Shown piece after piece: positions 1,253 through 22,537 of a stretch of 32,000 nucleotides of DNA. Position 1 is the stretch's first letter. Every line of letters begins with the position of its first letter. The notes below the pieces were generated by a model, which was given only the letters and a program-made list of their open reading frames with translations, ran no database searches and was not told where the DNA came from. Position numbers and translations under genes: made by a program. Source of the stretch: Opitutales bacterium (GTDB lineage: Bacteria; Verrucomicrobiota; Verrucomicrobiia; Opitutales; PNEW01); assembly GCA_965219535.1 (NCBI GenBank), contig CBDCNV010000002.1:1440001-1472000 (forward strand), given 5' to 3'.

Positions 1253-2648
1253 TTAAGTGTTAGGTTAGGGTCGGTACAACCAGGACATGGTTTACAGATT
1301 TAGATCAAGACATGGTTTACACTTTGTGAGGGATGCTGAACGGTAATCGGGTTATATAGTTAAGTTAATGTTATGCGGTTTTAGAGGTTTGGCTGGCATT
1401 GTTGGGGCCGCAAGCGGCCCCAATGAAAGCAGCCGTTGAAAGGTCAATCTGACCGATTCTGAGAGTGGCAAAGTAAACATCGAAGTGTACCGTGTCTAGT
1501 GGTTTTAGTCCAACGCTCCAACCGGCGAGGGCGGTGGAGATAGGAATCTGGAAGCCATCGAGTTTGATAGACCCGCTTTTTGAGACCCGGCGAGTCATCA
1601 AATCATAGCTGATATCGGCAGGAGTGCCACCGTAAGGATGAGAGCTGTGCTGATAGATTTCAGAGGGCGTGCTCATGGCAAGAGCCGCATGGGGGCGTTC
1701 TTCATTGAAGGTCTTGCGCCACAGATCGAAGGCCACCTGTTGGGTGCGAAGATCGTCCTGGGCATGTTTTTGCAACTCCTCTTTGATATCGCGATGGAGA
1801 CGCTCATGGGCACCGTTATCCTGGGGTTTACCCGGACGTCCACGCTCGAGATTGATCCCTAAGGCCAGCCACCAGGCCGCCAGTTTGCTCAGGCCCAGGA
1901 CCGCATTGGCACTGGCAAAGGGACTGCCGTTGTCGCTGCGGATGCAAGCGGGAAGTCCATAGCGTTCAAAGAGTTTTGTGAAGCATTCACGCACCGCTTC
2001 GCTACGGGCTGAACTGAGCACCCGCACCTCTAATACATAGCGGCTCCATTCATCCCGTACCGTCAAAGGTTCACAACGGTTGCCATCAACGGTGTGCCAC
2101 CACCCTTTGAAGTCTACGCTCCACACTTCGTTACAGCCACTGGCCTTGACGCTGCGGTAAAGGCGTCCGCTTTTTTGAGCGCTTCTGCGCCGACGCTTTT
2201 GCACCAGTCCCGCACGTTCCAAGACCCGTTTCACGCTCGAGTCTGAGGGGGCCTTCCCGTAACGCCTCTGGTAAAGCTCGCGGATCTTGTAGGGGCCCCA
2301 CGTCGGGTGATGATGCTTGAGTTTGATCAGCGTACATACTACTGATTCGGATAGTTCCTGAACACTTCCATGCGGTCGGCGTGAGCGCTCGTGCAACCCC
2401 TCCATCCCTTCGCTCAGGAAGCGCTTCTTCCATTTATACCCTGTCGGTCGGCTGATCCCGTAGTCTTCACACAGCTCGTTCATCTTTACTCCCGGTTGCA
2501 TCGATTCCAGGGCGAATTGGTATCTTTGGTCCATTTTATTTGTTTCCTTCCATGACATCATACCCCTTACTTAGCATCCTTCTTTCTTTGGCAATCTGTA
2601 AAGGATGTCCTGAACCTTTTGTGTAAAGAATGTCTTGAACCTATACCG
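1253..2648 (-). mobile_element. IS481-like insertion sequence, copy 1 (element proper probably 1272..2648)
   Basis: 1396-nt block identical by eye to 8513..9908 (offset 7260). Short terminal inverted repeat CGGTACA (1272) / TATACCG (2642-2648). Two subterminal ARGACATNNTTTACA boxes at each end. Single DDE transposase ORF. No target-site duplication discernible. Confidence 0.85.
1371..2561 (-). CDS. DDE transposase (HTH + rve/integrase-core), IS481-like
   Basis: 396-aa ORF. N-terminal HTH (ELCEDYGISRPTGYKWKKRF). DDE core WSVDFKG ... IRSDNGSPF ... NGAHERLHRDIK. Identical copy at 8631..9821. Confidence 0.85.
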   Translation of the reverse strand: MMSWKETNKMDQRYQFALESMQPGVKMNELCEDYGISRPTGYKWKKRFLSEGMEGLHERSRRPHGSVQELSESVVCTLIKLKHHHPTWGPYKIRELYQRRYGKAPSDSSVKRVLERAGLVQKRRRRSAQKSGRLYRSVKASGCNEVWSVDFKGWWHTVDGNRCEPLTVRDEWSRYVLEVRVLSSARSEAVRECFTKLFERYGLPACIRSDNGSPFASANAVLGLSKLAAWWLALGINLERGRPGKPQDNGAHERLHRDIKEELQKHAQDDLRTQQVAFDLWRKTFNEERPHAALAMSTPSEIYQHSSHPYGGTPADISYDLMTRRVSKSGSIKLDGFQIPISTALAGWSVGLKPLDTVHFDVYFATLRIGQIDLSTAAFIGAACGPNNASQTSKTA

Positions 2649-2695
2649 ATGTCGCTATCGGGTATCGGTATCGAAATCGAAATCGGTATTGGGTT

Positions 2696-2762
2696 GGAAG
2701 ATGTCGGGCTATACCCTCGGTATACCGTTCAGGGTGGAAGATGTCGAGATGCGCTCTCGGTA
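2696..2762 (-). repeat. two REP-like hairpin units, reverse orientation (2696-2722, 2736-2762)
   Basis: GGAAGATGTCG-N9-CTCGGTA twice, 40 nt apart. This is the reverse complement of the TACCGAG-stemloop-CGACATCYYCC unit seen at nine other sites. Confidence 0.8.
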
Positions 2763-2807
2763 CAGGGGAGTAGAGGAGAAAAGACAAGTCGAGAAATTAT
2801 CAAAAAG

Positions 2808-2873
2808 CTACCGAGGGCAAAGCCCGACATCCCCCAATCACTACCGAGGGCAAAGCCCGACATCCCCCAATTT
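2808..2873 (+). repeat. 33-bp tandem duplication carrying two REP-like hairpin units
   Basis: CTACCGAGGGCAAAGCCCGACATCCCCCAAT at 2808 and again at 2841 (period 33). Confidence 0.9.
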
Positions 2874-2990
2874 CAAATAATATCCAAGTTACAATTACTA
2901 AATAGCCAAACTGTCTTTTCGTTTATTTCATAAATTGGAATTTCCATCATTGGAATTTATTTGTGATTTGGTAATTGATGTTTGTTGCTT
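2868..2990 (+). repeat. ~125-bp AT-rich module, copy a
   Basis: CAA(T)TTCAAATAATATCCAAGTTACAATTACTAAATAGCCAAACTGTCTTTTCG...TTGGAATTTCCATCATTGGAATTTATTTGTGATTTGGTAATTGATGTTTGTTGCTT. Aligns along its length with 3680-3808 and 20939-21061. Confidence 0.85.
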
Positions 2991-3010
2991 TTAAATTCTA
3001 CGTTTGACCC
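2990..3010 (+). promoter_or_regulatory. conserved 21-nt upstream motif TTTAAATTCTACGTTTGACCC (copy 1)
   Basis: Exact 21-mer, 33 nt upstream of the GNAT ATG (3044) and in the same orientation as the gene. Confidence 0.5.
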
Positions 3011-3043
3011 GTTTCGACTTTCATGAAAGAGGATTATTGAAAG

Positions 3044-3592
3044 ATGAGATTGAAATCAAAGATCGGCGAGGAGTTTATTTTGCGCGAAATATCTGACTTA
3101 GATTCAGAACTACTTGGTCAATATTTCGAATCATTATCAGCTGAAACGCGAAGAAGGTATGGCCCGCATCCGTTCACAAAAGAAATTGCCGGTGAACTTT
3201 GCACAAGAAAGCATGACAGTGCTAAGAGATTTGTTCTCACTCTTGTGGATAACACACGTTTCGTTGGGTATTTCATTTTAGAATTTCAAATGCACAAAGA
3301 TTTACTAAATCGCTATAAAGAAGAGGGAATTGTTCTTACAGATGGCAAAAATCCGTTGTTTGCACCTTCGATTGCAGATGACTATCAAAATACTGGATTA
3401 GCATCATTAGCAATGCCAGGTCTCATCAAAGCCGCGAAAGATCTTGGCGCAAAAAGTTTAGTATTAATGGGCGGAACTCAAGCGACTAATAAAAGAGCAA
3501 TCGCGTTTTATAAAAAGTTTGGCTTTGTGCATGTTTGTGATTTTGAAAATAAGTCCGGTCTCAATTATGATATGTGGTTGAGATTAGGTTAG
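3044..3592 (+). CDS. GNAT family N-acetyltransferase
   Basis: 182-aa ORF, AAGAGG 11 nt upstream. Acetyl-CoA-binding-type motif QNTGLASLAM ... NKRAIAFYKKFGF. Confidence 0.7.
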   Translation: MRLKSKIGEEFILREISDLDSELLGQYFESLSAETRRRYGPHPFTKEIAGELCTRKHDSAKRFVLTLVDNTRFVGYFILEFQMHKDLLNRYKEEGIVLTDGKNPLFAPSIADDYQNTGLASLAMPGLIKAAKDLGAKSLVLMGGTQATNKRAIAFYKKFGFVHVCDFENKSGLNYDMWLRLG

Positions 3593-3653
3593 AGAGGTTT
3601 ACCGTTCAAGGTTCACGGTTGAAAGAATGTTTTATCCTTTAGGATCAATCCGC

Positions 3654-3680
3654 TACCGAGGGCAAAGCCCGACATCTCCC
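3654..3680 (+). repeat. REP-like hairpin unit
   Basis: TACCGAGGGCAAAGCCCGACATCTCCC, preceded by the leader CCTTTAGGATCAATCCGC (3636-3653). Confidence 0.8.
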
Positions 3681-3808
3681 AATCGCAAATCACAAATTTC
3701 AAATAATATCCAAATTACAATTACTAAATAACCAAACTGTCTTTTCGTATATTGGTATTTCCATAATTGGAATTTATTTGTGATTTGGTATTTGATTTTT
3801 TGGTGCTT
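3680..3808 (+). repeat. ~125-bp AT-rich module, copy b
   Basis: Aligns with 2868-2990 and 20939-21061. Has a small insertion (CGCAAATCACAAAT) near its start and a short deletion in the middle. Confidence 0.8.
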
Positions 3809-3817
3809 AGCCAGTTG

Positions 3818-5134
3818 TCAGCGCTCTTCTACATTTTGACTTTTTGACTTTTTGACCTTTTGACGCGCATGACGCGCATATTCGTGCGCCACCGGCACTT
3901 TGATATGTGCATTGATATCTTGCACGGATTCTGGATTTTCCTCCTCTTGCTTAAATCCCCACAGCGTGCGTGCATGAGCTGCTTCGGCCCGATCGAGCAC
4001 CGGCTGTTGCAAGGTGTCACGTTCATCGGGACAGAGATGCCGCATCAACGGTTGTAGTTCAGGGGGCAGGGCTTGATACTCTGCGTGGTTAAGCGGACGG
4101 CATACGTGGTAGACATTGTACTTGTCTCCCGGGGCGAAGTCGTCGACGGACAACCACCAGGGGCACCAGCGATTCACCACCGCAACCCTTTCCCGACCAC
4201 TTGGATTGTGCCTGGCAGTCGCGTGCCAGCAACGTGAATCCTGGATATAGACAGACCCCGCTGGCGCGGATACTTGCATATCGCCGGGAATGGGCGCGGA
4301 AACCGAAATACCATCGTTCGGACCCCGTGGATTCCGCTTGTCCTTATGCGAACCCGGCACGATCCACGTGCCCCCCGAATTTTCATCGACATCGGTTAGA
4401 TACCAGATCATCACCAGGCACATGGTTACGTCGGGGCAGGGCTGGCGGATGCAGCCGGTATTAAGATAGGGGTCTTTATTGCCGTAAGCTGAAAGGTCGT
4501 GGGGCCAGTCTGTGTGCCAGCCGCGCTTTTCCGAACCTCGCATTTTCTTGAATTCGTCTACTCCCTCATTCTCGATAAATGCATCGTCGTTCTTAATGTG
4601 TCGGGTATGCATCTGCGCGATTCGAATATGGTCATCGAGAACGTGGCGTGCCACAGCGGTAGTTACCGGGTTGGCGAGATGCCGGGCGTACTGGGGCATC
4701 CAGATAATAATGTCGGGAGGTTTGGGAGGATGCCCGACTTTGCGCACTCGCCTTAACTCCACGTTGTTTGCCGCGGCCTTGCCGCTGAGTAATTCCTCTG
4801 CGTTCGCACCCTCTTGATCAAACAGGTCTTTAATGCCCTGAATATTGCGTTTAGCAGTTTCATCTGCCGCCTTAACTTCTTCGCGAATGGCGTCCACCTC
4901 GTCAGATGGTATCACATGGTCGACGACACAGAAACCGTATCGATCGAGTGAATCGGCACAACCCGCTACCACATCCTCAACGGACATCTTTGCGGAATCG
5001 AATGCATAGGCTCGAGTGCGGATAAGGTCTGCACTGACGGCCTCAGGGTCGATGGCCGATGCCAGGAGATCGCGGGTCTCCTGCAGCTCACGTTCCAGGC
5101 GCTCTACATTGGATTGTAATTCATTGATATCCAT
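3818..5134 (-). CDS. phytanoyl-CoA dioxygenase (PhyH) family Fe(II)/2OG oxygenase with N-terminal coiled-coil-like extension
   Basis: 438-aa ORF. HxD motif in GWHTDWPHD and distal His in RCWHATARHN. The last ~20 codons (HARQKVKKSKSQNVEER) are encoded by the reverse (GGTCAAAA)n/GCGC repeat module. Confidence 0.75.
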   Translation of the reverse strand: MDINELQSNVERLERELQETRDLLASAIDPEAVSADLIRTRAYAFDSAKMSVEDVVAGCADSLDRYGFCVVDHVIPSDEVDAIREEVKAADETAKRNIQGIKDLFDQEGANAEELLSGKAAANNVELRRVRKVGHPPKPPDIIIWMPQYARHLANPVTTAVARHVLDDHIRIAQMHTRHIKNDDAFIENEGVDEFKKMRGSEKRGWHTDWPHDLSAYGNKDPYLNTGCIRQPCPDVTMCLVMIWYLTDVDENSGGTWIVPGSHKDKRNPRGPNDGISVSAPIPGDMQVSAPAGSVYIQDSRCWHATARHNPSGRERVAVVNRWCPWWLSVDDFAPGDKYNVYHVCRPLNHAEYQALPPELQPLMRHLCPDERDTLQQPVLDRAEAAHARTLWGFKQEEENPESVQDINAHIKVPVAHEYARHARQKVKKSKSQNVEER

Positions 5135-5154
5135 TTTAATCGCTGGAGTGGATT

Positions 5155-5197
5155 AAAAGGTCAAAAGGTCAAAAAGTCAAAAGGTCAAAAAGTTGAC
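5155..5197 (+). repeat. (GGTCAAAA)n tandem array
   Basis: AAAAGGTCAAAAGGTCAAAAAGTCAAAAGGTCAAAAAGTTGAC. Reverse copies at 3834-3864 and 24907-24930. Short copies at 10171-10188 and 10221-10233. Confidence 0.9.
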
Positions 5198-5226
5198 GCC
5201 AAACACTGACGCGAGTGTTTTAATTC

Positions 5227-5266
5227 AGTCTAAAGTCAAAGGTCTAAGGTCGAAGGCGGGGAGGGG
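5227..5266 (+). repeat. AGTCTAAAGTCGAAGGTCGAAAGTCGAAAGCGGGG-type module
   Basis: One of seven copies: 5227-5266, 6844-6878, 9973-10008, 20848-20888, 30188-30220, 31467-31498, and reverse 17688-17715. Confidence 0.9.
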
Positions 5267-5332
5267 AAGTGAAAAATGAAAAGTGAACAGTGAGAGAGTT
5301 GCGTATAATATTTAACGGAGTTTATTATATTT

Positions 5333-5385
5333 CCCTGAACCCTGAACCCTGAACCCTGTACCGAGAGCGTAGCTCGACATCTTCC
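5333..5385 (+). repeat. (CCCTGAA)n array fused to a REP-like hairpin unit
   Basis: CCCTGAACCCTGAACCCTGAACCCTG followed by TACCGAGAGCGTAGCTCGACATCTTCC. The mirror-image arrangement is at 22398-22438. Confidence 0.85.
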
Positions 5386-5429
5386 AACCCTACACCTGAT
5401 GCTCTTCCGTTAGGATCAATCGACAATCG

Positions 5430-5456
5430 TACCGAGGACGAAGTCCGACATCTTCC
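5430..5456 (+). repeat. REP-like hairpin unit
   Basis: TACCGAGGACGAAGTCCGACATCTTCC, preceded by the leader TCCGTTAGGATCAATCGAC (5406-5424). Confidence 0.8.
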
Positions 5457-5480
5457 AAATCGAAAATCGGCAATCGATGG

Positions 5481-6350
5481 TCACGATGGTGGCTTAAAGC
5501 GTCGGTTGCGGGAAGCTGTTGTCGCACCACCGGATTCTGGCCAGGGACCTCCAAGGTGTCCCTCAGACCGGAGGGGCATGGCGGCATTGCCTGCGATGTG
5601 GTTCCAGGTTCTTACCCGGAGATCATGGTCGGTCCCGTACTCATTCCTGGAAAGTGTCGACGGGTGTTCGTTATCTAAGCGCACCCGCACATCGGGAATA
5701 TTCCCGGCGTCGTGATCCCAGGACGGTTCAGTATTCTCCTCGGTTCTCGAGTAGAGGAACTTGAACATGTAGCGCACCCGGTCGCTTCGGTTGCCCGTGC
5801 CCGCATGCCAGATGTCGTAATGAGTCAGGAGGACAGAACCGGCGTTGACCGTCGAAAACACCTGGCCTTTTAAATTCACAAGCGTGACCATAGTTTCAGG
5901 CGCAGCAACGCGCCTCTGACTGCCCGGCAGCAACACCGTGGGCCCCATGTCTTCAGTTACGTCCTGTGGATAATACATTAGCATCACGTGTTTGATGTGA
6001 TCGATATCCCTGTCCTGGTGACCCCTCCCGAAACGCTCGTCCTGGTGCCAGGGCTGGGCGCGTGTTTTGGGAGGGTTCATGTGAATGTGTCCACCCGGAT
6101 CTTTGAAGAAGCCCGGACCGAGCAGGCTGGTTAATGCACCGACGACCGAGGGGTGCTCCAGTACTACCGAGATTTTTGGCAATGCCTCGACGATACGCTC
6201 ACCTGGGTTTTCGGGCATCTTTCGGAGGCTATCACAGATCTCATCGTTGTAACCCGAAGGCAGATCTGGCTCGACGATGTGATACCCGCTGATGATGAAC
6301 GAAGCGACCTCGTCATCATTTAACAGGTTCGAGTTGTTACTTCTATTCAT
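5481..6350 (-). CDS. phytanoyl-CoA dioxygenase (PhyH) family protein
   Basis: 289-aa ORF. PWHQDERF (HxD) and DIWHAGTGNRS (distal His). Its start overlaps the stop of the upstream small ORF by 8 nt. Confidence 0.75.
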   Translation of the reverse strand: MNRSNNSNLLNDDEVASFIISGYHIVEPDLPSGYNDEICDSLRKMPENPGERIVEALPKISVVLEHPSVVGALTSLLGPGFFKDPGGHIHMNPPKTRAQPWHQDERFGRGHQDRDIDHIKHVMLMYYPQDVTEDMGPTVLLPGSQRRVAAPETMVTLVNLKGQVFSTVNAGSVLLTHYDIWHAGTGNRSDRVRYMFKFLYSRTEENTEPSWDHDAGNIPDVRVRLDNEHPSTLSRNEYGTDHDLRVRTWNHIAGNAAMPLRSEGHLGGPWPESGGATTASRNRRFKPPS

Positions 6351-6612
6351 CGATATCCACTAACTGATCCAGAATGAACTCGTAGCCGAACACGCCGACC
6401 GCTTCTGGATCGACATCCGCTCGCTGGGCCGGGAAGCTGACTACCCGCCAGCCGTCCAGAATGGCACCGTGCACGGTCTCGTATGGCATCTCTATGCCGG
6501 CTTCGATCTGTGGGGCATCAGACTCCACAGGTTCGTGGACGGCAAATCCAACGACGGGGGCTCTCAGGCTCCTCGATACGGCGTTCAAATAGAGAATTCT
6601 CTGTCGTTTCAT
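6343..6612 (-). CDS. hypothetical small protein (89 aa), possibly translationally coupled to the PhyH gene
   Basis: ORF with balanced, non-repeat composition. It ends ...GATGAATAG, which contains the ATG of the next gene. No recognisable motif. Confidence 0.45.
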   Translation of the reverse strand: MKRQRILYLNAVSRSLRAPVVGFAVHEPVESDAPQIEAGIEMPYETVHGAILDGWRVVSFPAQRADVDPEAVGVFGYEFILDQLVDIDE

Positions 6613-6654
6613 GAGGACGGATTACTCACTCAATCATGACCGGAATATGACAAG

Positions 6655-6675
6655 GGGTCAAACGTAGAATTTAAA
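6655..6675 (-). promoter_or_regulatory. conserved 21-nt upstream motif (copy 2, reverse strand)
   Basis: Exact reverse complement of TTTAAATTCTACGTTTGACCC, 42 nt upstream of the start at 6612 and oriented with that minus-strand gene. Confidence 0.5.
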
Positions 6676-6713
6676 GAGCGCTGACATAGCGCTGACGCGC
6701 GTGTTAAGTGTTA

Positions 6714-6757
6714 GGTATCGGTATCGAAATCGGGATCGAGTATCGAAATCGAGTATC
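6714..6757 (+). repeat. ATCGNN hexamer array
   Basis: GGTATCGGTATCGAAATCGGGATCGAGTATCGAAATCGAGTATC. Other arrays at 2661-2689, 9906-9925, 10095-10141 and 15029-15072. Confidence 0.9.
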
Positions 6758-6921
6758 CCTTCGACTGCGCTCAGGGCAGGCGGGTGTCAGGATTTAGTAA
6801 ACAGTGAACAGTGAAAGAGCGCTGACGCGCGTGTTTTAAAATTAGTCTAAAGTCGAAGGTCAAAAGTCGAAAGCAGGGAAGAATCTAATACATAGCCTGA
6901 CTTCATTTGAGTTTCTTGACA

Positions 6922-6942
6922 TTTAAATTCTACGTTTGACCC
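6922..6942 (+). promoter_or_regulatory. conserved 21-nt upstream motif (copy 3)
   Basis: Exact 21-mer, 92 nt upstream of ATG 7035. Followed by CTTTTCCCCTTACC. Confidence 0.5.
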
Positions 6943-7034
6943 CTTTTCCCCTTACCATTTTTATACCCCTAAACATTTCGATGATAAACGCATTCTGTAT
7001 GAGAAGTGTGAATCGTTCGCTAGAGATCTAACGC

Positions 7035-8444
7035 ATGTATACTCCTATCTGGATTAAGATCCCGGCAGGTAAATTTTGGATGGGTAGTGATCCAGCGGGC
7101 GATGTCGTACCTTACGAGAACGAAATCCCGAGACATCGGGTGCATGTCGATGAATTTCAGCTCGCACGTACGCACGTAACGAATGCTCAATACGCAGAAT
7201 TCGTCAGGAAATCCGGTTATCAAGCGCCTGGGCATTGGCTGAATGGAAAAATTCCTGAGGGCCTATCCGATCATCCGGTCACCTATGTTGACTGGCACGA
7301 TGCCCTGGCATTTTGTCAGTGGGCAGGTGTGCGACTGCCAACTGAAGCCGAATGGGAGAAGGCTGCGCGCAGCGACGATGCGCGGCTCTGGCCCTGGGGC
7401 AATCATCCACCCGATGCTCACCGTTGCAATTTTGCCAAACATATCTTTACAACCAGCCCGGTACACACATTTCTTCAGAGCGCCAGTCCGTATGGTGCAT
7501 TGGACATGGCCGGCAATGTCTGGGAATGGACAAGCAGCCTTACCCGCGCGTATCCATACAATAAGAATGACGGTCGAGAAAATCCAGCATTGGGTGAATC
7601 ACGAATTGTACGTGGCGGATCCTACACGCATGACGCACGCAATATTCGTGCTGCTGATCGGCACTCTTTTGTGCCCGGTACGAGAGGAGTATATCTCGGT
7701 TTTCGCGTTGCTCGCACGAGTCCTTCGAGAACCACGCGCTTAACTTTTGAGTGGGTCGATATTCCTTCGGGCGAATTTCAGATGGGCAACGATACGCGTG
7801 TCTTTCACGATCTGGCATTACCCAATGAATGCCCCTACCACGAGATTTCGTTAGAGGAATTTTATATAGCTCAGACACCGGTCACCAACGCGGAATATGA
7901 AAAGTTTGTGCGCGCTACCAATCATTTAGTCCCTGCTCATTGGATCGAAGGCGACATTCCACAAGGAAACGAAAATCATCCCGTGACGAATGTATCCTGG
8001 GACAGCGCTCAGGATTTTTGTGAATGGGCAAATGTACGTTTGTCAACCGAAGCGGAATGGGAAATGGCAGCACGAGGTCCAGGTTTGGGAAACGTGCGTG
8101 TTTATCCATGGGGCGACGAAATACCGCAAGAACCATGTGCAAATTATGCACGGGATGTAAAAACACATTCAACAACACCGGTCGATCAATTCCCCGGTGG
8201 CGCAAGTCCGTACGGCGTATACGACATGGCAGGTAATGTATGGGAGTGGACGAGCAGTGTGTTAGCGGACTATCCGTACTGCATCAATGATGGGCGCGAG
8301 GATTTAATGTCGCGCGCACACCGGGTATTGCGTGGGGGATCGTTTTACAGTCCGAGTGAAAGTTATATCCGTTGTGCAGCGCGCAGTTCGAGTTATCCAC
8401 AGCGCCGACGCGATCATATCGGATTTCGCATTGCAAAAAAGTAG
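7035..8444 (+). CDS. tandem double FGE-sulfatase-fold (SUMF1/EgtB/PvdO-type) domain protein
   Basis: 469 aa with two homologous halves (about aa 5-228 and 240-468). Each half has the motifs NE.P.H.V, VTNA.Y..F, HPVT.V.W, EAEWE.AAR, SPYG..DMAGNVWEWTS, RGGS and GFR(V/I)A. Confidence 0.8.
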   Translation: MYTPIWIKIPAGKFWMGSDPAGDVVPYENEIPRHRVHVDEFQLARTHVTNAQYAEFVRKSGYQAPGHWLNGKIPEGLSDHPVTYVDWHDALAFCQWAGVRLPTEAEWEKAARSDDARLWPWGNHPPDAHRCNFAKHIFTTSPVHTFLQSASPYGALDMAGNVWEWTSSLTRAYPYNKNDGRENPALGESRIVRGGSYTHDARNIRAADRHSFVPGTRGVYLGFRVARTSPSRTTRLTFEWVDIPSGEFQMGNDTRVFHDLALPNECPYHEISLEEFYIAQTPVTNAEYEKFVRATNHLVPAHWIEGDIPQGNENHPVTNVSWDSAQDFCEWANVRLSTEAEWEMAARGPGLGNVRVYPWGDEIPQEPCANYARDVKTHSTTPVDQFPGGASPYGVYDMAGNVWEWTSSVLADYPYCINDGREDLMSRAHRVLRGGSFYSPSESYIRCAARSSSYPQRRRDHIGFRIAKK

Positions 8445-8512
8445 CCAACACAGATGAAGGGGAGAAGCGCTGACATAGCGCTGACGCATCAGCGCGTGTT
8501 AAGTGTTAGGTT

Positions 8513-9908
8513 TTAAGTGTTAGGTTAGGGTCGGTACAACCAGGACATGGTTTACAGATTTAGATCAAGACATGGTTTACACTTTGTGAGGGATGCTGAA
8601 CGGTAATCGGGTTATATAGTTAAGTTAATGTTATGCGGTTTTAGAGGTTTGGCTGGCATTGTTGGGGCCGCAAGCGGCCCCAATGAAAGCAGCCGTTGAA
8701 AGGTCAATCTGACCGATTCTGAGAGTGGCAAAGTAAACATCGAAGTGTACCGTGTCTAGTGGTTTTAGTCCAACGCTCCAACCGGCGAGGGCGGTGGAGA
8801 TAGGAATCTGGAAGCCATCGAGTTTGATAGACCCGCTTTTTGAGACCCGGCGAGTCATCAAATCATAGCTGATATCGGCAGGAGTGCCACCGTAAGGATG
8901 AGAGCTGTGCTGATAGATTTCAGAGGGCGTGCTCATGGCAAGAGCCGCATGGGGGCGTTCTTCATTGAAGGTCTTGCGCCACAGATCGAAGGCCACCTGT
9001 TGGGTGCGAAGATCGTCCTGGGCATGTTTTTGCAACTCCTCTTTGATATCGCGATGGAGACGCTCATGGGCACCGTTATCCTGGGGTTTACCCGGACGTC
9101 CACGCTCGAGATTGATCCCTAAGGCCAGCCACCAGGCCGCCAGTTTGCTCAGGCCCAGGACCGCATTGGCACTGGCAAAGGGACTGCCGTTGTCGCTGCG
9201 GATGCAAGCGGGAAGTCCATAGCGTTCAAAGAGTTTTGTGAAGCATTCACGCACCGCTTCGCTACGGGCTGAACTGAGCACCCGCACCTCTAATACATAG
9301 CGGCTCCATTCATCCCGTACCGTCAAAGGTTCACAACGGTTGCCATCAACGGTGTGCCACCACCCTTTGAAGTCTACGCTCCACACTTCGTTACAGCCAC
9401 TGGCCTTGACGCTGCGGTAAAGGCGTCCGCTTTTTTGAGCGCTTCTGCGCCGACGCTTTTGCACCAGTCCCGCACGTTCCAAGACCCGTTTCACGCTCGA
9501 GTCTGAGGGGGCCTTCCCGTAACGCCTCTGGTAAAGCTCGCGGATCTTGTAGGGGCCCCACGTCGGGTGATGATGCTTGAGTTTGATCAGCGTACATACT
9601 ACTGATTCGGATAGTTCCTGAACACTTCCATGCGGTCGGCGTGAGCGCTCGTGCAACCCCTCCATCCCTTCGCTCAGGAAGCGCTTCTTCCATTTATACC
9701 CTGTCGGTCGGCTGATCCCGTAGTCTTCACACAGCTCGTTCATCTTTACTCCCGGTTGCATCGATTCCAGGGCGAATTGGTATCTTTGGTCCATTTTATT
9801 TGTTTCCTTCCATGACATCATACCCCTTACTTAGCATCCTTCTTTCTTTGGCAATCTGTAAAGGATGTCCTGAACCTTTTGTGTAAAGAATGTCTTGAAC
9901 CTATACCG
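8513..9908 (-). mobile_element. IS481-like insertion sequence, copy 2 (element proper probably 8532..9908)
   Basis: Identical by eye to 1253..2648. Same orientation. Confidence 0.85.
8631..9821 (-). CDS. DDE transposase (HTH + rve), IS481-like
   Basis: 396-aa product identical to that of 1371..2561. Confidence 0.85.
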   Translation of the reverse strand: MMSWKETNKMDQRYQFALESMQPGVKMNELCEDYGISRPTGYKWKKRFLSEGMEGLHERSRRPHGSVQELSESVVCTLIKLKHHHPTWGPYKIRELYQRRYGKAPSDSSVKRVLERAGLVQKRRRRSAQKSGRLYRSVKASGCNEVWSVDFKGWWHTVDGNRCEPLTVRDEWSRYVLEVRVLSSARSEAVRECFTKLFERYGLPACIRSDNGSPFASANAVLGLSKLAAWWLALGINLERGRPGKPQDNGAHERLHRDIKEELQKHAQDDLRTQQVAFDLWRKTFNEERPHAALAMSTPSEIYQHSSHPYGGTPADISYDLMTRRVSKSGSIKLDGFQIPISTALAGWSVGLKPLDTVHFDVYFATLRIGQIDLSTAAFIGAACGPNNASQTSKTA

Positions 9909-9972
9909 GTATCGAAATCGGGATCCCTTCGACTGCGCTCAGCGCTCAGCGCTGGCGCGCGTGTTTTAAAAA

Positions 9973-10008
9973 AGTCTAAAGTCGAAGGTCGAAAGTCGAA
10001 AGCGGGGG
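9973..10008 (+). repeat. AGTCTAAAGTCGAAGGTCGAAAGTCGAAAGCGGGGG module
   Basis: See 5227-5266. Preceded by the GC core AGCGCTCAGCGCTGGCGCGCGTGTT (9941-9965). Confidence 0.9.
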
Positions 10009-10018
10009 AAGAATTCAG

Positions 10019-10060
10019 TGAACAGTGAACAGTGAACAGTGAACGGTGAACAGTGAAAGA
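10019..10060 (+). repeat. (GTGAACA)n heptamer array, about 6 units
   Basis: GTGAACAGTGAACAGTGAACAGTGAACGGTGAACAGTGAAAG. Shorter runs at 1209-1220, 5281-5293, 6797-6817 and 17613-17620. Confidence 0.9.
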
Positions 10061-10094
10061 GCACTGATACGCGTGTTAAGTTTTAAGTATTAGA

Positions 10095-10141
10095 TATCGG
10101 AATCGAAATCGGAATCGGGATCGGTATCGAAATCGGGATCC
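10095..10141 (+). repeat. ATCGNN hexamer array
   Basis: ATATCGGAATCGAAATCGGAATCGGGATCGGTATCGAAATCGGGATC, followed by CCTTCGACTGCGCTCAGCGCTGACGCGCG. Confidence 0.9.
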
Positions 10142-10188
10142 CTTCGACTGCGCTCAGCGCTGACGCGCGTCAAAAGGTCAAAAAGTCA

Positions 10189-10218
10189 CCAGCCGTCGCC
10201 AAGGCTATGGCCGGCAAG
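10189..10218 (+). repeat. 30-mer CCAGCCGTCGCCAAGGCTATGGCCGGCAAG
   Basis: Exact second copy at 31591-31620. Reverse or degenerate copies at 30550-30583, 17740-17761, 31925-31947 and 1177-1208. Confidence 0.9.
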
Positions 10219-10324
10219 AAAGGTCAAAAAGTAAATACGTTGCTTCAAGAATTGTCTAAATGATCCAAACTTATTCACCACCGACACCCGACACCTTTCA
10301 ACTCCTCCGTTAGGATTAATCCGC

Positions 10325-10351
10325 TGCCAAGGGCGTAGCCCGACATCCACC
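10325..10351 (+). repeat. REP-like hairpin unit (degenerate flank)
   Basis: TGCCAAGGGCGTAGCCCGACATCCACC, preceded by the leader TCCGTTAGGATTAATCCGC (10306-10324). Confidence 0.7.
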
Positions 10352-10431
10352 ATCGATTGGGATCGCCGCGTCATTTAGTACAAAAAGATCGACATGATCC
10401 CTTTTGGGTTTCCTGATATCTTAGAGTGAAA

Positions 10432-10821
10432 ATGGAAAAATGTGTATTCTGTAATTTAGAATGTGATCCTGATATTAAAATTCTTTTTAAGAACGAGCGG
10501 GTGTTTTATTGCCAGCATGAAAGATATCAAGGTTCACTGAAATATTCTGGGGCCATTGTGCCTGTTAAACACCGGGAAACCGTATTTGATCTTATAGCAG
10601 ACGAAATAGACGCGACATTCAAGATGTTGATAGAAGTTAAGGATTGGCTTGCTGAGAACTATCAGCCAGATGGTTATAATGTAGGCTGGAATTGTTTTGA
10701 AATTGGTGGTCAGCAACTGCCTCTTCATGCTCATATGCATGTGATTCCAAGATTTAGGCAAGAACCACTAGCTGGAAAAGGTATCAGATCTCTCCTGAAA
10801 TCTGATCAAAACAAATGGTAA
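10432..10821 (+). CDS. HIT (histidine triad) family protein
   Basis: Histidine triad HAHMHVIPR near the C-terminus and N-terminal CVFC. ATG 10432 is preferred over the GTG at 10426 in the ORF track. Confidence 0.75.
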   Translation: MEKCVFCNLECDPDIKILFKNERVFYCQHERYQGSLKYSGAIVPVKHRETVFDLIADEIDATFKMLIEVKDWLAENYQPDGYNVGWNCFEIGGQQLPLHAHMHVIPRFRQEPLAGKGIRSLLKSDQNKW

Positions 10822-10823
10822 TA

Positions 10824-10844
10824 TTTAAATTCTACGTTTGACCC
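10824..10844 (+). promoter_or_regulatory. conserved 21-nt upstream motif (copy 4)
   Basis: Exact 21-mer starting 3 nt after the HIT stop and 107 nt upstream of the sulfatase ATG (10952). Followed by CTTTTGCCTTTCCCC. Confidence 0.5.
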
Positions 10845-10951
10845 CTTTTGCCTTTCCCCAACCAATTTTTAAATCAGCTCAGACAACTAGATGGATATAA
10901 AGCTGGATTGACGGTGCGGAGGAAGGGTCTCTATGCTTGCGAGACTGCGTC

Positions 10952-12403
10952 ATGCCAGACCATCCGAACATACTGTTCATCTTCACCGACCAGCAGCGAG
11001 CGGACACTTTGGCCTGTTACGGCAACACGCTCATCCACACGCCTAACCTCAACTCCCTGGCTGACGGGAGCTTCGTCTTCGAGAACGCCTACGTAAGCAC
11101 TCCCATCTGCGCGCCCTCGCGATCGACCATCATGACCGGCACCTGGCCCCACACGAACGGGTTAGTGAAGAACAACATACCGCTGAATCCATCCGTACAG
11201 ACGATCGCGGAAATGCTCCCGGAGGAGTACCTGACGGCGAACTACGGCAAGTGGCACCTGGGCGACGAGGTCATCCGGCAACACAGCTTCGACCGGTGGG
11301 TAAGCATCGAGGACGATTCCTCCCACCGCAAGTTCTACTCCGATCCACGGTACCTATCGGTGTTCAGCGACTACCACCACTTCCTGATCGAGAAGGGCTT
11401 CAAGCCCGACATGGAATCCGAGGGGGCTATGATTTTCTCCCAGCCCTACGCGGCTGCACTGCCGGAGGAGTACACGAAGGCCATGTTCTTGGGGGACGAG
11501 GCAGCCAGGTTCATCCACGACAACCGGGACCGGCCCTTCGCGCTCTACGTGAGCATATTCGAGCCGCACCCTCCCTACAACGGGCCCTTCAACAATCTGC
11601 ATGACCCGCAGTTGATCCCGGTAAACCCCGTCTTCATGAAGGATCCACCCGACAACGCTACCCAGCTCCACAAGTTTCGAGTCAGGGAAACCCAGATGGG
11701 AGGGGGCTTTGACGAGGACATCTCCGGGCGGCTCGACGAGGCCTACTGGCGGGCGCTGGTAGCTCGCTACTGGGGGCTGGTGACGCTGGTGGACGGGGCT
11801 GTGGGCCGAATCCTCGGGGCGTTGGAGGAGGCGGGGATAGCTGACAACACGATCGTCGTCTACACTTCCGATCACGGCGACCAGCTGGGCGACCACAACA
11901 TCATTCATAAGTCCTGCTTCTACGAACAGTCGATCAAGGTGCCGCTGCTCATGCGCGTGCCCTGGCTCGGCGAGAGGCAGACTCTCATCGAGGGTCGGTA
12001 CAGCCAAATCGATTTGGTACCCACCCTGCTAGACTTGGTCGGCGCGGACATCCCGGGGCATCTCCAGGGAGAGAGCCGGGCCGCCGTGCTGCGGGGCGAG
12101 GCGACGCTGGAAGACAACGACGTGATCATCGACTGGACCGGCCGCGTCCGCGTTCCCACCCACCCGTCAGACCAGGAGCATGTCCAGAGCACTCAACATC
12201 GCACCCTGATCTCGGCCGACGGCTGGAAGCTGACGCTGGCCCTGGGGTACCAGGGTGAGCTCTACGACTTGAACACTGACCCCTACGAAGACACGAACCT
12301 GTTCGACGAGCCGACGCACCGGGCCCGTATCCGGGAAATGTCGGCCCGCATCCGTAAGTGGCAGCGACGAACCGAGGACCCTGCTCAGCTTCCGGATGTC
12401 TGA
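10952..12403 (+). CDS. sulfatase (Cys-type, formylglycine-dependent)
   Basis: NILFIFTDQQRAD and the sulfatase signature C-A-P-S-R-S-T-I-M-T-G. Later motifs YGKWHLG and VYTSDHGD. ATG 10952 is preferred over the TTG at 10937. Confidence 0.85.
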   Translation: MPDHPNILFIFTDQQRADTLACYGNTLIHTPNLNSLADGSFVFENAYVSTPICAPSRSTIMTGTWPHTNGLVKNNIPLNPSVQTIAEMLPEEYLTANYGKWHLGDEVIRQHSFDRWVSIEDDSSHRKFYSDPRYLSVFSDYHHFLIEKGFKPDMESEGAMIFSQPYAAALPEEYTKAMFLGDEAARFIHDNRDRPFALYVSIFEPHPPYNGPFNNLHDPQLIPVNPVFMKDPPDNATQLHKFRVRETQMGGGFDEDISGRLDEAYWRALVARYWGLVTLVDGAVGRILGALEEAGIADNTIVVYTSDHGDQLGDHNIIHKSCFYEQSIKVPLLMRVPWLGERQTLIEGRYSQIDLVPTLLDLVGADIPGHLQGESRAAVLRGEATLEDNDVIIDWTGRVRVPTHPSDQEHVQSTQHRTLISADGWKLTLALGYQGELYDLNTDPYEDTNLFDEPTHRARIREMSARIRKWQRRTEDPAQLPDV

Positions 12404-13235: not shown

Positions 13236-13782
13236 TAGTACGCAAATTAGAAGAACTATAGATAAAGTTCGTCTTCGCCTGATTCATCGTCCACATCGTA
13301 AATTGAATATTATAAATGATATAAATTATTTATGGACACAGATGAAAATTCGGCTGAAAACAAATATCATTTAATGTCTCACACTTATTATTCCGCAGAA
13401 AACTAGACATTAATTACAAGACAGGGGTATAACAATTAAAACCTTTGCTGTAAGCTGTGGGAGAATTAATTTTTTATAAACGTCCCCTTCGCGCGGTTGG
13501 GTTGGAAGCTGATCGGGTTTTGATTCGCAACGAAGCCCTTCGGACGTCGGCGACCTTCCTATTCCTCCACAACACCCAGTCGAAGCCACCCCATAGACAT
13601 CAATCCTAAAACCATTAACACCCAGTAACTCTCTCTGTAAATGATACGATTTATGATAATTACATAACTGGACTCGCTGCTAAGCTTTGGCGAGGCAAGC
13701 GAAGAGTTATTACCTTTTTTGGTTTGACTTCATTTAGCGTAGCACTCTATCAGGATAATGAATTGACAGAACCCCCTTGAAG

Positions 13783-14604
13783 ATGGCAATTGATCAACAA
13801 CAGAGAAAACAATTCGACGAACTGGGTTATCTCATTGTAGAACGACTGATCTCGGGAAACGATCTGCTTGAGCTTGACCGGATGATCGATTGTCTGCTCG
13901 ACGGTGAGCTTAAACCAGTGACAGATTACAAAGGTTGGTTACCCGATCAATTCTATACATTTTGGGAACCGGAAATGAAAGAACGAACGGATCTACCGCG
14001 ACGCGATCGTGTTCGACTCATGTCCTACATGTACCATCACCACCCCTATTTCAGGGCTATTGGCAGCCACCCCGCGATATACGAGGTGATTTCATTGCTT
14101 TACCAAACAGGGGTTCAGATATTTTGCGATACCCTGTTTAATAAGCCGGCTCACCACGGTATCAAAGCTGCGTTGCACCAGGATACTACCTTTTGGGGTA
14201 AGATCGAACCCAATGCCATGAACTTCTGGATGGCCATCGACCCCGCGACCGTTGAAAACGGATGCCTCCACATCATACCTGCAAGCCACAAGAAAGATCT
14301 ACCCCACCATGATCATCCGATCCAGGGACATATTCTCAACGACGACGAAGTGGACCTCAGTATACAGATCCCAATTGAGCTTGAGCCCGGGAACGCTATC
14401 TTTTTTGACAGCGGGTTGATCCACCGAAGCTATCCCAATCGGAGCGATCGCAGGCGCCGCGCCTATGCCGCTATCTACGGCACGGAAAATCAGCGACACA
14501 TCGAACCGTGGAAAACAACGAGCATTGCTGAGAAATCCCCGAACTACCAGTTCGAGTTGATCGCTCCCCATCAGCGCAGCGTAGCCGGCGAGGGAAAATT
14601 TTAA
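13783..14604 (+). CDS. phytanoyl-CoA dioxygenase (PhyH) family protein
   Basis: FDELGYLIVERL at the N-terminus, ALHQDTTFW (HxD), NGCLHIIPASH, and GLIHRSYPNRS (distal His). ATG 13783 is preferred over TTG 13777. Confidence 0.8.
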   Translation: MAIDQQQRKQFDELGYLIVERLISGNDLLELDRMIDCLLDGELKPVTDYKGWLPDQFYTFWEPEMKERTDLPRRDRVRLMSYMYHHHPYFRAIGSHPAIYEVISLLYQTGVQIFCDTLFNKPAHHGIKAALHQDTTFWGKIEPNAMNFWMAIDPATVENGCLHIIPASHKKDLPHHDHPIQGHILNDDEVDLSIQIPIELEPGNAIFFDSGLIHRSYPNRSDRRRRAYAAIYGTENQRHIEPWKTTSIAEKSPNYQFELIAPHQRSVAGEGKF

Positions 14605-14982: not shown

Positions 14983-15233
14983 AGCGCTGACGCATCAGCG
15001 CGTGTTAAGTTTTATGTGTTAGGTGTTAGGTATCGAGTATCGGTATCGGGATCGGGTATCGGTATCGAAATCTTCCAATCCGCAATCTGAAATCCGATAT
15101 CCACAATTGATATGACCCCTTTTAACTTTCCCTTACTCGTATTTTTGCATCTATGCTTAACTTGCCTTGGGGTGCACCTCGGTGGTCGAGAGTTCGGGTA
15201 CGATATTGAATAAGGGTAAGCCATTGCGGAAAT

Positions 15234-15448
15234 CTTGAGTTTGATCAGCGTACATACTACTGATTCGGATAGTTCCTGAACACTTCCATGCGGTCGGCGT
15301 GAGCGCTCGTGCAACCCCTCCATCCCTTCGCTCAGGAAGCGCTTCTTCCATTTATACCCTGTCGGTCGGCTGATCCCGTAGTCTTCACACAGCTCGTTCA
15401 TCTTTATGCATCGATTCCAGGGCGAATTGGTATCTTTGGTCCATTTTA
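15234..15448 (-). mobile_element. internal fragment of the IS481-like transposase gene
   Basis: Matches 2316-2538 of the intact IS (transposase codons ~10-82) with an 8-nt deletion (CTCCCGGT, 2489-2496). Neither IS terminus is present. Confidence 0.85.
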
Positions 15449-15621
15449 CCCCGTAGTTTGTCGCGATACAGGCGATGTGCGGGGTTATAATAACGTTATC
15501 CAGATCCCATAGAGGATTGTTCAGATTTTTGAGAAAAATATCGCACATTCGCACCCCGTAGTTTGTCGCGATACAGGCGATGTGCGGGGTTATAATAACG
15601 TTATCCAGATCCCATAGAGGA
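15448..15621. repeat. 69-nt direct duplication (15448-15516 and 15553-15621) separated by 36 nt
   Basis: ACCCCGTAGTTTGTCGCGATACAGGCGATGTGCGGGGTTATAATAACGTTATCCAGATCCCATAGAGGA occurs twice. It encodes PLWDLDNVIITPHIACIATNYGV twice on the minus strand. Confidence 0.9.
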
Positions 15622-16537
15622 CTATCCGGCGGTAATGGTTCTTCACGAAAAACGTCTAAACCTGCACCTGCGAGATGACCATTTTTCAAGGCCTCGATTA
15701 ATTCCGGTTCTACTATCACCGTACCACGCGAAGAATTGTAGAGATAGGCGCCCGGTTTCATCGCATCGAGGAACCGCTTGTCGACAAGGTCTCTGGTTGT
15801 AGGTCCTCCGGTGACTGCCAGGACGACGTGATCCGCTTCGGCGAGAGCGCCGTAAAGCTCGTCGGTCGTATACAGTTTTTCGACCCAATCGGGTTTTTTT
15901 ATATCCTCGATGTCAACCGCGATTACACGCATCTGAAGACCGGAACACACCCGCGCGATTTGGGATCCGGTACTGCCGATACCTACGACACAGACAGTCG
16001 ATCCATTTAATTCTCCGCAGAAAAATTCCTCGCCGTTCAAGATAGTTCGGTTGAATTGCCGATTCTGTTTTCCCTGCATATGCAGTAAAATTCTTCGGCT
16101 GAAAAAGAGCATCATCGAGAGCGTATTTTCCGCAATGCCGATGGATGCTGCGCCCTTGATGTTGCACAGGGTAAAGTTGGGACGCGACTCAAATCCGTGA
16201 CCGAGGTAACCATCAAATCCCGCGCTGCCGAGTTGCAGTACACGCACGGGGGTTCCTTCCAACCAATCTGCTTTAGGATTGCCAACGACAAAATCCGCAC
16301 CCTCAAGGTGACTGCGATATTCTGCTTCAGGGATTTTGGGATCAATAACTTTCAACTCGGACCAGCCGGAGGCGGCATCTCTGAGTTGACTTAACAGTGC
16401 TTCCTTTAAAAACGGAATTGCGTAGAGAATTTGTGAGGACATAAATTAATATAGAACGGCAATTGATTTACTATCAAAATAAATTATTACATTTGATAAA
16501 AATTTTTCTCTTACGTTAGACCTCTTTTGATTTTCCT

Positions 16538-18662: not shown

Positions 18663-18695
18663 AAAGGGTCAGACTGCAGAGCCTGACCCCTTTTG
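18663..18695 (+). terminator. candidate rho-independent terminator, also a member of the TGCAGAGCCTGACCCCTTTTG repeat family
   Basis: AAAGGGTCAG-ACTGCAGAGC-CTGACCCCTTTTG begins 2 nt after the stop. 7-bp GC-rich stem followed by a T run. Confidence 0.5.
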
Positions 18696-20816: not shown

Positions 20817-20847
20817 GCTTTAGGCGCATCAGCGCGTGTTTTAATTT

Positions 20848-20888
20848 AGTCTAAAGTCGAAGGTCGAAAGTCGAAGGCGGGGGAGGGG
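20848..20888 (+). repeat. AGTCTAAAGTCGAAGGTCGAAAGTCGAAGGCGGGGGAGGGG module
   Basis: See 5227-5266. Preceded by GCGCATCAGCGCGTGTT (20824-20840), which starts 8 nt after the SBP stop. Confidence 0.9.
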
Positions 20889-20912
20889 TCAAGTCGAGAA
20901 ATTACAAAACGC

Positions 20913-20939
20913 TACCGAGGGTAAAGCCCGACATCTCCC
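20913..20939 (+). repeat. REP-like hairpin unit
   Basis: TACCGAGGGTAAAGCCCGACATCTCCC. Confidence 0.8.
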
Positions 20940-21061
20940 AATTACAAATAATTTCCAAATTACAATTACCTAATAACCAAACTGTCTATTCATTTATTTC
21001 ATAAATTGGAATTTCCATCATTGGAATTTATTTGTTATTTGGTAATTGATATTTGTTGCTT
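20939..21061 (+). repeat. ~125-bp AT-rich module, copy c
   Basis: Aligns with 2868-2990 and 3680-3808. Confidence 0.85.
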
Positions 21062-21114
21062 GGTCAGTTTTCAGGAAAAAACTGTTACCGCCGTTAGGAT
21101 AAATCCACAATCGG

Positions 21115-22471: not shown

Positions 22472-22537
22472 AAAGGGGTCAGGCTCTGCATTCTGACATA
22501 AATTAAAAAATGTCAGAATGCAGAGCCTGACCCCTTT
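22472..22537. repeat. perfect 27-bp inverted repeat (hairpin/cruciform) with a 12-nt AT loop
   Basis: AAAGGGGTCAGGCTCTGCATTCTGACA - TAAATTAAAAAA - TGTCAGAATGCAGAGCCTGACCCCTTT. The right arm recurs at 26011-26039. Confidence 0.9.

Follow-up and report, generated by a model that had tools for sequence, protein, structure and literature searches.

We analysed a 32,000-nucleotide (nt) stretch of an Opitutales bacterium genome (assembly GCA_965219535.1, contig CBDCNV010000002.1, positions 1,440,001 to 1,472,000; hereafter "the window"), in which the 21-nt sequence TTTAAATTCTACGTTTGACCC recurs without a mismatch upstream of several genes. An initial annotation of the window had regarded this 21-mer as a shared promoter or operator. 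Our analysis leads to a different conclusion, which we hold with high confidence: the 21-mer is the terminal inverted repeat (TIR) of a family of small mobile elements, and the ~1.0-kb autonomous form of the family encodes a Y1 (HUH, single-tyrosine) transposase of ~305 amino acids (aa). This enzyme, which is widespread in Opitutales bacteria, resembles the RAYTs, the tyrosine transposases associated with repetitive extragenic palindromes (REPs). The window carries only non-autonomous leftovers of the family, and their location ahead of a GNAT gene, a pair consisting of a small open reading frame (ORF) and a PhyH gene, an FGE-like gene and a sulfatase gene is probably incidental. A protein very probably recognises the 21-mer, and this protein would be a transposase, not a sigma factor or a regulator. 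Three properties of the family are directly observed. First, a transposase gene lies between flanking arms. Second, a deletion series leads from the 1.0-kb element through doublets of 241, ~134 and 53-59 nt to solo arms. Third, the copies are intergenic without orientation bias, and they turn over between genomes that are ~95% identical.

Copies of the 21-mer and their pairing

An exact search returned exactly four perfect copies of TTTAAATTCTACGTTTGACCC in the window, at 2990-3010 (+), 6655-6675 (-), 6922-6942 (+) and 10824-10844 (+), in agreement with the initial annotation. The window contains no additional match at up to three mismatches, and 100 shuffles gave none (0 expected). The annotated distances of 33, 42, 92 and 107 nt to the respective start codons are also correct on the sequence. 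The family is represented in the window by one doublet, two solo arms and one decayed copy:

2990..3010, + strand: solo 21-nt TIR arm, 33 nt before the GNAT start, without a partner arm
6649..6675, - strand: left arm of the doublet, GACAAGGGGTCAAACGTAGAATTTAAA, pointing outward, towards the small ORF 6343-6612
6922..6948, + strand: right arm of the doublet, pointing outward, towards the FGE-like gene at 7035
6649..6948, no strand: whole doublet, two inverted arms and a 246-nt spacer composed of other repeat modules of the window
10824..10858, + strand: solo TIR arm with a pyrimidine-rich tail, CTTTTGCCTTTCCCC; the 21-mer ends 107 nt before the sulfatase ATG at 10952
16502..16537, + strand: decayed copy with the core ACGTTAGACCTC, 64% identical to the 36-nt reference, facing the 3′ end of the ORF 16538-17599

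The copies at 6655 and 6922 are the arms of one 27-nt inverted repeat, which are 96% complementary and have 246 nt between them. The divergent pair with one copy per gene, as originally described, is thus present, and it is an automatic consequence of this single inverted repeat. The copy at 10824 begins 2 nt past the stop codon of the HIT-domain ORF 10426-10821. The degenerate copy that had been placed near 16505-16535 does exist; it points away from the start at 16442 and is antisense to both of its neighbouring genes. Accordingly, the description of the copies as oriented with their genes holds for the four exact copies, and fails for the decayed one. Inward of the solo arm at 2990, positions 2959-2989 are homologous to the interior of a 134-nt doublet at the orthologous site (locus L034) of OY829953.1, a 4.49-Mb Opitutales chromosome.

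How is the 21-mer distributed beyond the window? In a scan of one genome per bacterial species, the exact 21-mer was found at 42 loci (cited here by L numbers) in 17 species-level assemblies, nearly all of them Opitutales, Puniceicoccaceae or other Verrucomicrobiota. The retrieved loci and the window together contain 78 exact copies, as compared to only 16 copies with 1-4 mismatches; ~36 of the exact copies are in loci retrieved from OY829953.1. Most copies are paired, and solo arms are common as well. All 33 inverted pairs consist of a minus copy followed by a plus copy, which makes their arms point outward. The pair lengths include three classes: 53-59 nt (ten cases, mostly from a Guaymas Verrucomicrobia genome, assembly QNAI01), 133-140 nt (eleven cases) and 241-242 nt (seven cases). 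At some loci (L025 and L017), several doublets follow each other at intervals of 0.6-0.8 kb, and the genes between them vary in size and strand.

The shortest doublets, AAAAGGGG...CCCCTTTT, form perfect hairpins (-32 kcal/mol) with no extrahelical bases, and those of QNAI01 are located 3-20 nt past stop codons. In comparison, a single arm with its tail has no self-fold (0 kcal/mol), and GTAG sits within the arm, not at the foot of the stem. Between subfamilies the arms are identical, while the interiors are ~65% identical or unalignable. Within a subfamily the copies are near-identical and have 10-12 nt beyond each arm in common. The flanks read A-rich, GGGG...CCCC, T-rich, and no target-site duplication was seen in them. 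The reading of the motif as a leader peptide (ATG TTT AAA TTC TAC GTT TGA) was dropped, as the triplet preceding the motif is ATG in only about one third of the copies and ATA or ACA in the others.

A Y1 transposase gene between inverted arms

At several loci (L029, L033, L040, L036 and the 241-nt elements of L017), an ORF end with the sequence ...NPWIA(E/K)RLNMGHPSR(V/I)(S/T)NL... lies 4-20 nt before the motif. The differences between these loci fall mostly on third codon positions, indicating that this ORF end was real coding sequence. A homologue search with a 111-aa fragment gave four database matches of 111-169 aa, in which no Pfam domain was found, and led to a neighbour with a Y1_Tnp domain. 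In L044, the homologue P0003 continues, past a frameshift, in a 194-aa ORF that matches Pfam Y1_Tnp (PF01797), and the whole transposase gene is bracketed by inverted GGGGTCAAACGTAGAA... and ...TTCTACGTTTGACCCC (GGGGTCAAACGTAGAAAATAGAAT and ATTCTATTTTCTACGTTTGACCCC).

A metagenome scan with the C-terminal alignment then yielded 80 transposase loci. In 56 of them, the 15-nt core TTCTACGTTTGACCC (up to two mismatches, in a search interval reaching from 25 nt ahead of the stop codon to 150 nt beyond it) is present near the stop, usually within ~25 nt after it. Moreover, the inverted 12-mer core (up to one mismatch) flanks 30 of the 38 full-length genes (~305 aa) on either side. The upstream core, GGGGTCAAACGT, is most often ~48 nt before the start codon, and the downstream core, ACGTTTGACCCC, is 5-23 nt after the stop codon. 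The exact 21-mer itself serves as the arm upstream of the gene in L095-L097 and L015, and as the arm downstream of it in L029. At both gene ends, the native motif points away from the transposase gene. With up to one mismatch, 142 occurrences of the 12-mer core were counted in 287 kb, as compared to ~1.3 expected from base-4 arithmetic, an approximately hundredfold excess. The 12-mer ACGTTTGACCCC can serve as a practical annotation marker for these elements in Opitutales genomes.

The encoded protein is recognised by the Pfam Y1_Tnp model at 46-58 bits in all eight of the full-length proteins tested, which derive from the related loci and not from the window. The motifs NHYH, FQ (HVFQGRY), YIHLNP and SS (LSSYP) are found in L052, L081, L098, L072 and L112. 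SNHYH and YIHLNPVRA are visible in the translations, and over both motifs the proteins align with E. coli TnpA-REP (4er8), which is the sole match in the PDB. The best NCBIfam family is REP-associated tyrosine transposase (REP_Tyr_transpos), and the IS200 model gives only a weak score of 25 bits, with a cut-off of 55. The conserved C-terminal extension comprises ~170 aa; its AlphaFold model, based on a four-sequence alignment, is all-helical but unreliable, with a pLDDT (predicted local distance difference test) of 47.

When aligned with the complete 1.0-kb element in L095, the 241-nt doublet of L017 covers ~119 nt at the beginning and ~108 nt at the end of that element, and is therefore an internal-deletion derivative.

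Damaged copies of the transposase gene are many. The copy in L044 (3420-4336) is frameshifted, with an identical sequence in 12 contigs; the copy in L043 (4001-4510), beside an IS630, has a replaced N-terminus; and the copy in L033 (~3160-3348) is reduced to a 60-aa remnant.

To which class of elements does this family belong? RAYT-like genes that are flanked by long TIRs, and not by palindromic REPs, have been described as TIRtrons encoding TIRYTs; TIRtrons have a common GGGGWSAS motif, and some of their TIRs recur as families of moderate abundance, singly, as dimers or in clusters (Di Nocera et al. 2013, PMC3733652). The TIRYTs were equated with TnpA_Y1 subclass 2.1, which is Bertels group 1 and is characterised by the signatures NH[YF]H, FQ, Y[IV]HLNP and SS after the tyrosine, and by a C-terminal extension (Quentin et al. 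2018, PMC6006769, Table 1). The present family shares with these systems a ~300-aa RAYT-like Y1 gene between long non-palindromic inverted repeats, the NHYH, FQ, YIHLNP and SS signatures with a long C-terminal extension, and dispersed arm copies as singles, dimers and clusters. Two differences exist. The outer end GGGGTCAA matches the TIRYT motif GGGG[AT][CG]A[CG] at seven of the eight positions, the last being A and not C or G, and the C-terminal domain lacks a match to the Bac_DnaA_C, HTH_23 or HTH_28 profiles reported for subclass 2.1. With these two caveats, the assignment of the autonomous transposase to TIRYT / TnpA_Y1 subclass 2.1 is a good fit.

Unlike the published TIRYTs, the present elements reside in Opitutales (Verrucomicrobiota), carry a 21-mer that is identical over 17 species-level assemblies, and display a clear deletion series of 1.0 kb, 241, 134 and 54 nt. 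The searched literature did not contain this TIR sequence, except for chance matches in unrelated papers. To our knowledge, the TIRYT/TIRtron class has been little studied, without any biochemistry, and has hardly been described in Verrucomicrobiota. The family provides a well-resolved example of the class, with a full element, a deletion series down to 54-nt hairpins, and an arm identical across many species. It is also a convenient system for studying how RAYT-like enzymes without classical REP hairpins recognise and move DNA.

The family has further relatives among the known systems. In the REP/REPIN-RAYT systems (E. coli TnpA-REP and the SBW25 REPINs), the transposase is homologous, its gene is likewise flanked by inverted repeat copies, and the dispersed non-autonomous unit is likewise an intergenic, hairpin-forming inverted doublet. 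In contrast, a classical REP is an imperfect palindrome of 20-40 nt with a GTAG foot, whereas the single unit here has no stem-loop and carries GTAG inside the arm; in addition, the protein is below the RayT equivalog cut-off, and the copies number tens per genome, not hundreds. Since the unit is not palindromic and the protein is not a RayT equivalog, the 21-mer is not a classical REP. The IS200/IS605 elements share the Y1 HUH catalytic domain, the lack of a target-site duplication, and asymmetric ends whose short tails extend past the recognised structure, consistent with cleavage away from the hairpin foot. Their ends, however, have separate small subterminal hairpins, whereas one long TIR pair is present here. 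Finally, the promoter- or terminator-bearing miniature inverted-repeat transposable elements (MITEs), such as the Neisseria Correia elements, are also short intergenic inverted-repeat elements that can precede genes and resemble regulatory motifs. Correia elements have a TA target duplication and documented promoter and IHF sites, and are not known to have a cognate transposase gene, hallmarks that are not shown for the 21-mer elements.

The nature of the enzyme also bears on two other origins of the arms. Integron-type attC sites, or other tyrosine-recombinase sites marking gene cassettes, would account for pairs of 54-241 nt with conserved ends and variable centres, for the doublets spaced 0.6-0.8 kb apart in L025 and L017, and for a two-gene cassette that lies exactly on an arm boundary in L026. 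The ...CAAAC / GTTTG... strings in the arms are reminiscent of the attC R''/R' boxes (RYYYAAC / GTTRRRY). Sites of this type would form an imperfect bottom-strand hairpin with extrahelical bases, in same-strand cassette arrays with IntI in the vicinity. However, the arms pair perfectly, without extrahelical bases; the genes between the doublets are mixed in size and strand; solo arms are common; and the native arm-bearing element encodes a Y1 HUH transposase and not an integrase. The attC explanation is thus highly improbable, and it was dropped in view of the perfect hairpins, the mixed gene orientations and the Y1 enzyme, no search for IntI having been made. The least probable of the explanations that we considered is a MITE derived from an insertion sequence (IS) with a DDE transposase, such as a nearby IS481, IS630 or IS1595. 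Inverted terminal repeats do surround short non-coding interiors, and IS481 and IS1595 copies are present in the window, but the motif is absent from the ends of the IS481 copies (~1225 and 2646), no target-site duplication was seen, and the autonomous partner that was found is a Y1 enzyme. A MITE of the local IS481 or IS1595 was dropped because their ends do not match the motif.

How might the TIRYT-like enzyme move these elements? If the Y1 enzyme works like IS200/IS605 TnpA and E. coli TnpA-REP, it would recognise the arms on single-stranded DNA, where the inverted arms could pair as a long hairpin. Cleavage may occur outside the arms, at a distance of roughly 10-12 nt, and a short family-specific tail would then move with the element; such cutting outside the arms would explain both the subfamily-specific tails of 10-12 nt and the lack of target duplications. 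The doublets could be copied or moved in trans by the transposase. If only the copies with intact arms were propagated, the 21-mer would stay identical while the interiors drift. Hairpin doublets with a T-run behind them may also have a secondary role as terminators.

Several points weigh against this assignment and mechanism. The RayT equivalog model NF047646 scores 64.7-74.2 bits, under its 80-bit cut-off, and the C-terminal domain has no Pfam match even at E≤1, nor does the fragment alone have an NCBIfam match. A tblastn search with full-length transposases found no gene or remnant in the window, and the loci retrieved from OY829953.1 contain transposase remnants only (L033 and L017). Mobility, and the binding and cleavage of the arms by the transposase, are inferred from the analogous systems. 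Moreover, all four window copies face gene starts, and several PhyH genes lie downstream of the copies in OY829953.1; given these facts, the window copies may conceivably have a local, co-opted role. On the strain contigs L129-L132, no cognate transposase is present within 60 kb.

Orientation, turnover and the regulatory readings

Does the 21-mer define a regulon? According to the initial annotation, it would be a promoter or operator, for an alternative sigma factor or a regulator, that unites the PhyH dioxygenases, the FGE-like protein and the sulfatase in a small regulon. All four window copies face the next start codon. The outer end contains TTGACC, which is like a -35 box, and one copy has a promoter-like match of 9/12, TTGACC-17-CATGAT at 6661-6633; TACGTTTG would fit the Bacteroidetes-type TAnnTTTG box. 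In other loci, PhyH accounts for three of the ten downstream genes checked. Nevertheless, a census of the 21-mer against gene orientation, which the initial annotation had proposed as a refuting test and which was run here on the relatives, gave no orientation bias. For the 78 exact copies, the next gene in the motif direction is faced at its start 33 times and at its end 34 times; in OY829953.1 alone, 20 copies point towards a start and 14 towards an end, and within 150 nt the ratio is 11:11. The even split is provisional, as it relies on crude ORF calls, in which ORFs of 90 aa or more were picked greedily from the longest down and any overlapping by more than 45 nt were discarded. By these calls, ~90% of the copies are intergenic. 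Many copies sit 1-20 nt from a stop codon, and the distance to a start codon ranges from 15 nt in L132 to several hundred nt, with extremes from ORF overlap to more than 1 kb.

The promoter elements themselves do not recur. A sigma-70 scan of positions 2500-11500 detected no -35/-10 pair common to the four copies, and 10 sites in total versus 10.6 in shuffles; the second hexamer lies in the variable tail and is missing from three of the four window copies. A search of the whole window against Rfam at the gathering threshold gave no match. The regulon is further contradicted by the native motif, which is directed away from the transposase gene at both ends, by the antisense position of the decayed copy at 16502 relative to both adjacent genes, and by the site upstream of the SBP gene, which has the motif in OY829953.1 and not in the window. 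In other loci, the genes that follow the motif have a variety of functions. The genome has an extreme density of PhyH genes throughout (five in the window and six in 20 kb of L132, with the expansion also noted in L129), and this very high density is why such genes are near the repeat so often. Taken together, we judge the regulon very unlikely, and the proposal of a shared promoter or operator is not supported; a false regulon is thereby removed, as a perfectly conserved upstream motif proves to be best explained as a transposon end. The fallback in the initial annotation, a promoter-carrying module of the repeat mosaic, survives in so far as the 21-mer is a module of a repeat system, while "promoter-carrying" is without any support.

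Comparison with OY829953.1, which is ~95% identical to the window in the shared genes, reveals turnover at three sites. Upstream of the GNAT gene, the solo arm of the window corresponds to a full 134-nt doublet (L034) in OY829953.1. Between the small ORF and the FGE-like gene, the spacer of both genomes has a doublet; the OY829953.1 copy (L026 2198-2424) is 227 nt long, contains different modules, and has two mismatches in one arm. Upstream of the SBP gene (window position 18768), OY829953.1 has a 136-nt doublet of the 21-mer family, whereas the window has an arm of a second repeat family, GGGGTCAGGCTCTGCATTCTGAC, which ends in the shared TGACCCCTTTTG. In addition, OY829953.1 has a 790-nt segment (L026 2425-3216) that separates ...TTTGACCC from its tail, exactly on the outer arm boundary. 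The window lacks this segment, and its positions 6942 and 6943 are contiguous. The segment contains a DUF4160 gene and a gene for a 169-aa helix-turn-helix (HTH)-like protein, a toxin-antitoxin-like pair.

The outer end of the arm also occurs by itself. With up to one mismatch, TGACCCCTTTT is found 14 times in the window, as compared to 0.63 expected, and these ends are joined to several unrelated inner sequences:

15113..15123, + strand: tail-only TGACCCCTTTT end on an unrelated inner sequence; others at 10395, 24887, 25987 and 26046

Among the tail-only relatives listed in the initial annotation, those at ~10395, 15113 and 24887 were recovered by this search, and those at 17803 and 21163 were not. 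The site turnover, the exact insertion and the TGACCCCTTTT joins fit a recombination-active element end, and not a conserved cis-regulatory site. Short tandem duplications of the end and its tail, such as TGACCCCTTTTGCTTTATCGACCCCTTTTGCTTTATC, are present in the window (26028-26062), in L040 (~2440-2510) and L044 (4350-4410), and in L016, L007 and L038; they might have been left by cleavage and rejoining at the element end, or by slippage there.

Could the arm boundary still be active? The 790-nt cassette, the tandem end and tail, the TGACCCCTTTT joins and the identity of the 21-mer over 17 species despite diverging interiors hint that it may be a live, site-specific Y1 junction that captures or releases foreign DNA, with the doublets as landing pads for small gene cassettes in the islands rich in PhyH and sulfatase genes, or that the C-terminal domain binds the arms and thereby modulates the neighbouring genes. 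We regard this as an unlikely extension of the transposon-end interpretation.

A related proposal is that some arms, as transposon relics, have been co-opted: the hairpins with a T-run would act as bidirectional terminators or mRNA stabilisers, and the TTGACC end as one half of a hybrid promoter. Correia-type elements are known for such roles. The perfect hairpins of the QNAI01 doublets, 3-20 nt after stop codons, conform to this proposal. For REPs, such roles are mentioned by Di Nocera et al. (PMC3733652). In the window, however, the doublet has a 246-nt spacer and the solo arms are foldless, and a terminator role is therefore impossible for these copies. Co-option is, in our estimate, a distinctly unlikely account of the 21-mer, for which the TIR of a Y1 element is the preferred explanation.

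A second repeat family and other features of the window

A second, related family of repeats is present in the window:

22472..22537, no strand: hairpin doublet with the arm GGGGTCAGGCTCTGCATTCTGACAT, -35.5 kcal/mol; its outer end, TGACCCCTTT, is in common with the 21-mer family
18668-18694 and 26010-26038: solo arms of the second family

This family was also noted in L009, L019 and L032, and has the same outer end, TGACCCCTTTT, as the 21-mer family. A cousin arm, GGGGTCAGGTCAATAATTTAAAT, is found at two of the transposase loci from the metagenome scan, L099 and L101. The second family is probably the end-repeat of a sister transposase lineage. Near its doublet, two divergent ORFs, one for a PhyH-like protein and one for an S15 peptidase, both begin with ATGACCCCTTT (M-T-P-F/L; at 22388-22399, -, and 22965-22976, +, respectively), the same string as the element end. 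This may reflect chance, a miscalled start, or an element end absorbed into the coding sequence.

The genes of the window encode a GNAT protein, several PhyH dioxygenases, an FGE-like protein, a sulfatase and sugar oxidoreductases. Four PhyH genes with a Pfam PhyH match are listed:

3818-5134: PhyH gene
5481-6350: PhyH gene
13777-14604: PhyH gene
21233-22399: PhyH gene

Other mobile DNA in the window comprises an IS481-family element, in two full copies and a partial one, and a single IS1595. The full IS481-family copies (1225-2646 and 8485-9906) are 98-100% identical. The partial copy (15234-15448) is fused into the ORF 15012-16442, which combines a 2-hydroxyacid dehydrogenase with the IS481 HTH, and it adjoins an exact 69-nt tandem pair (15448-15516 and 15553-15621). 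At the second IS481 copy, the window is rearranged relative to the ENA contig ERZ25072670 ctg256379. The IS1595-family transposase gene (27526-28200) is also present in L130 (6793-7467), while L129 has a 188-aa ORF on the opposite strand at this position; this difference of L130 and the window from L129 suggests a strain-level polymorphism.

The intergenic DNA of the window is a dense mosaic of short repeat modules, with stretches at 2600-2990, 3640-3810, 5150-5470, 6676-6921, 9900-10360 and 20830-21220. The modules include TACCGAGGGCAAAGCCCGACATC (8 copies), GCGCGTGTTAAGTGTTAGGT, GTCTAAAGTCGAAGGTCGAAAGTCGAAAGC (6 copies) and ATCGGTATCGAAATCGGGATCG. A 155-nt AT-rich module occurs at 2836-2990 and at 20907-21061; one copy ends exactly at the start of a 21-mer, and the other continues differently. 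Finally, long inverted repeats (30303-30596 and 31578-31901) bracket a SASA-type sialate esterase gene (30734-31480); they contain 63-nt arms that are 86% complementary, and additional pairs of 53, 43 and 37 nt.

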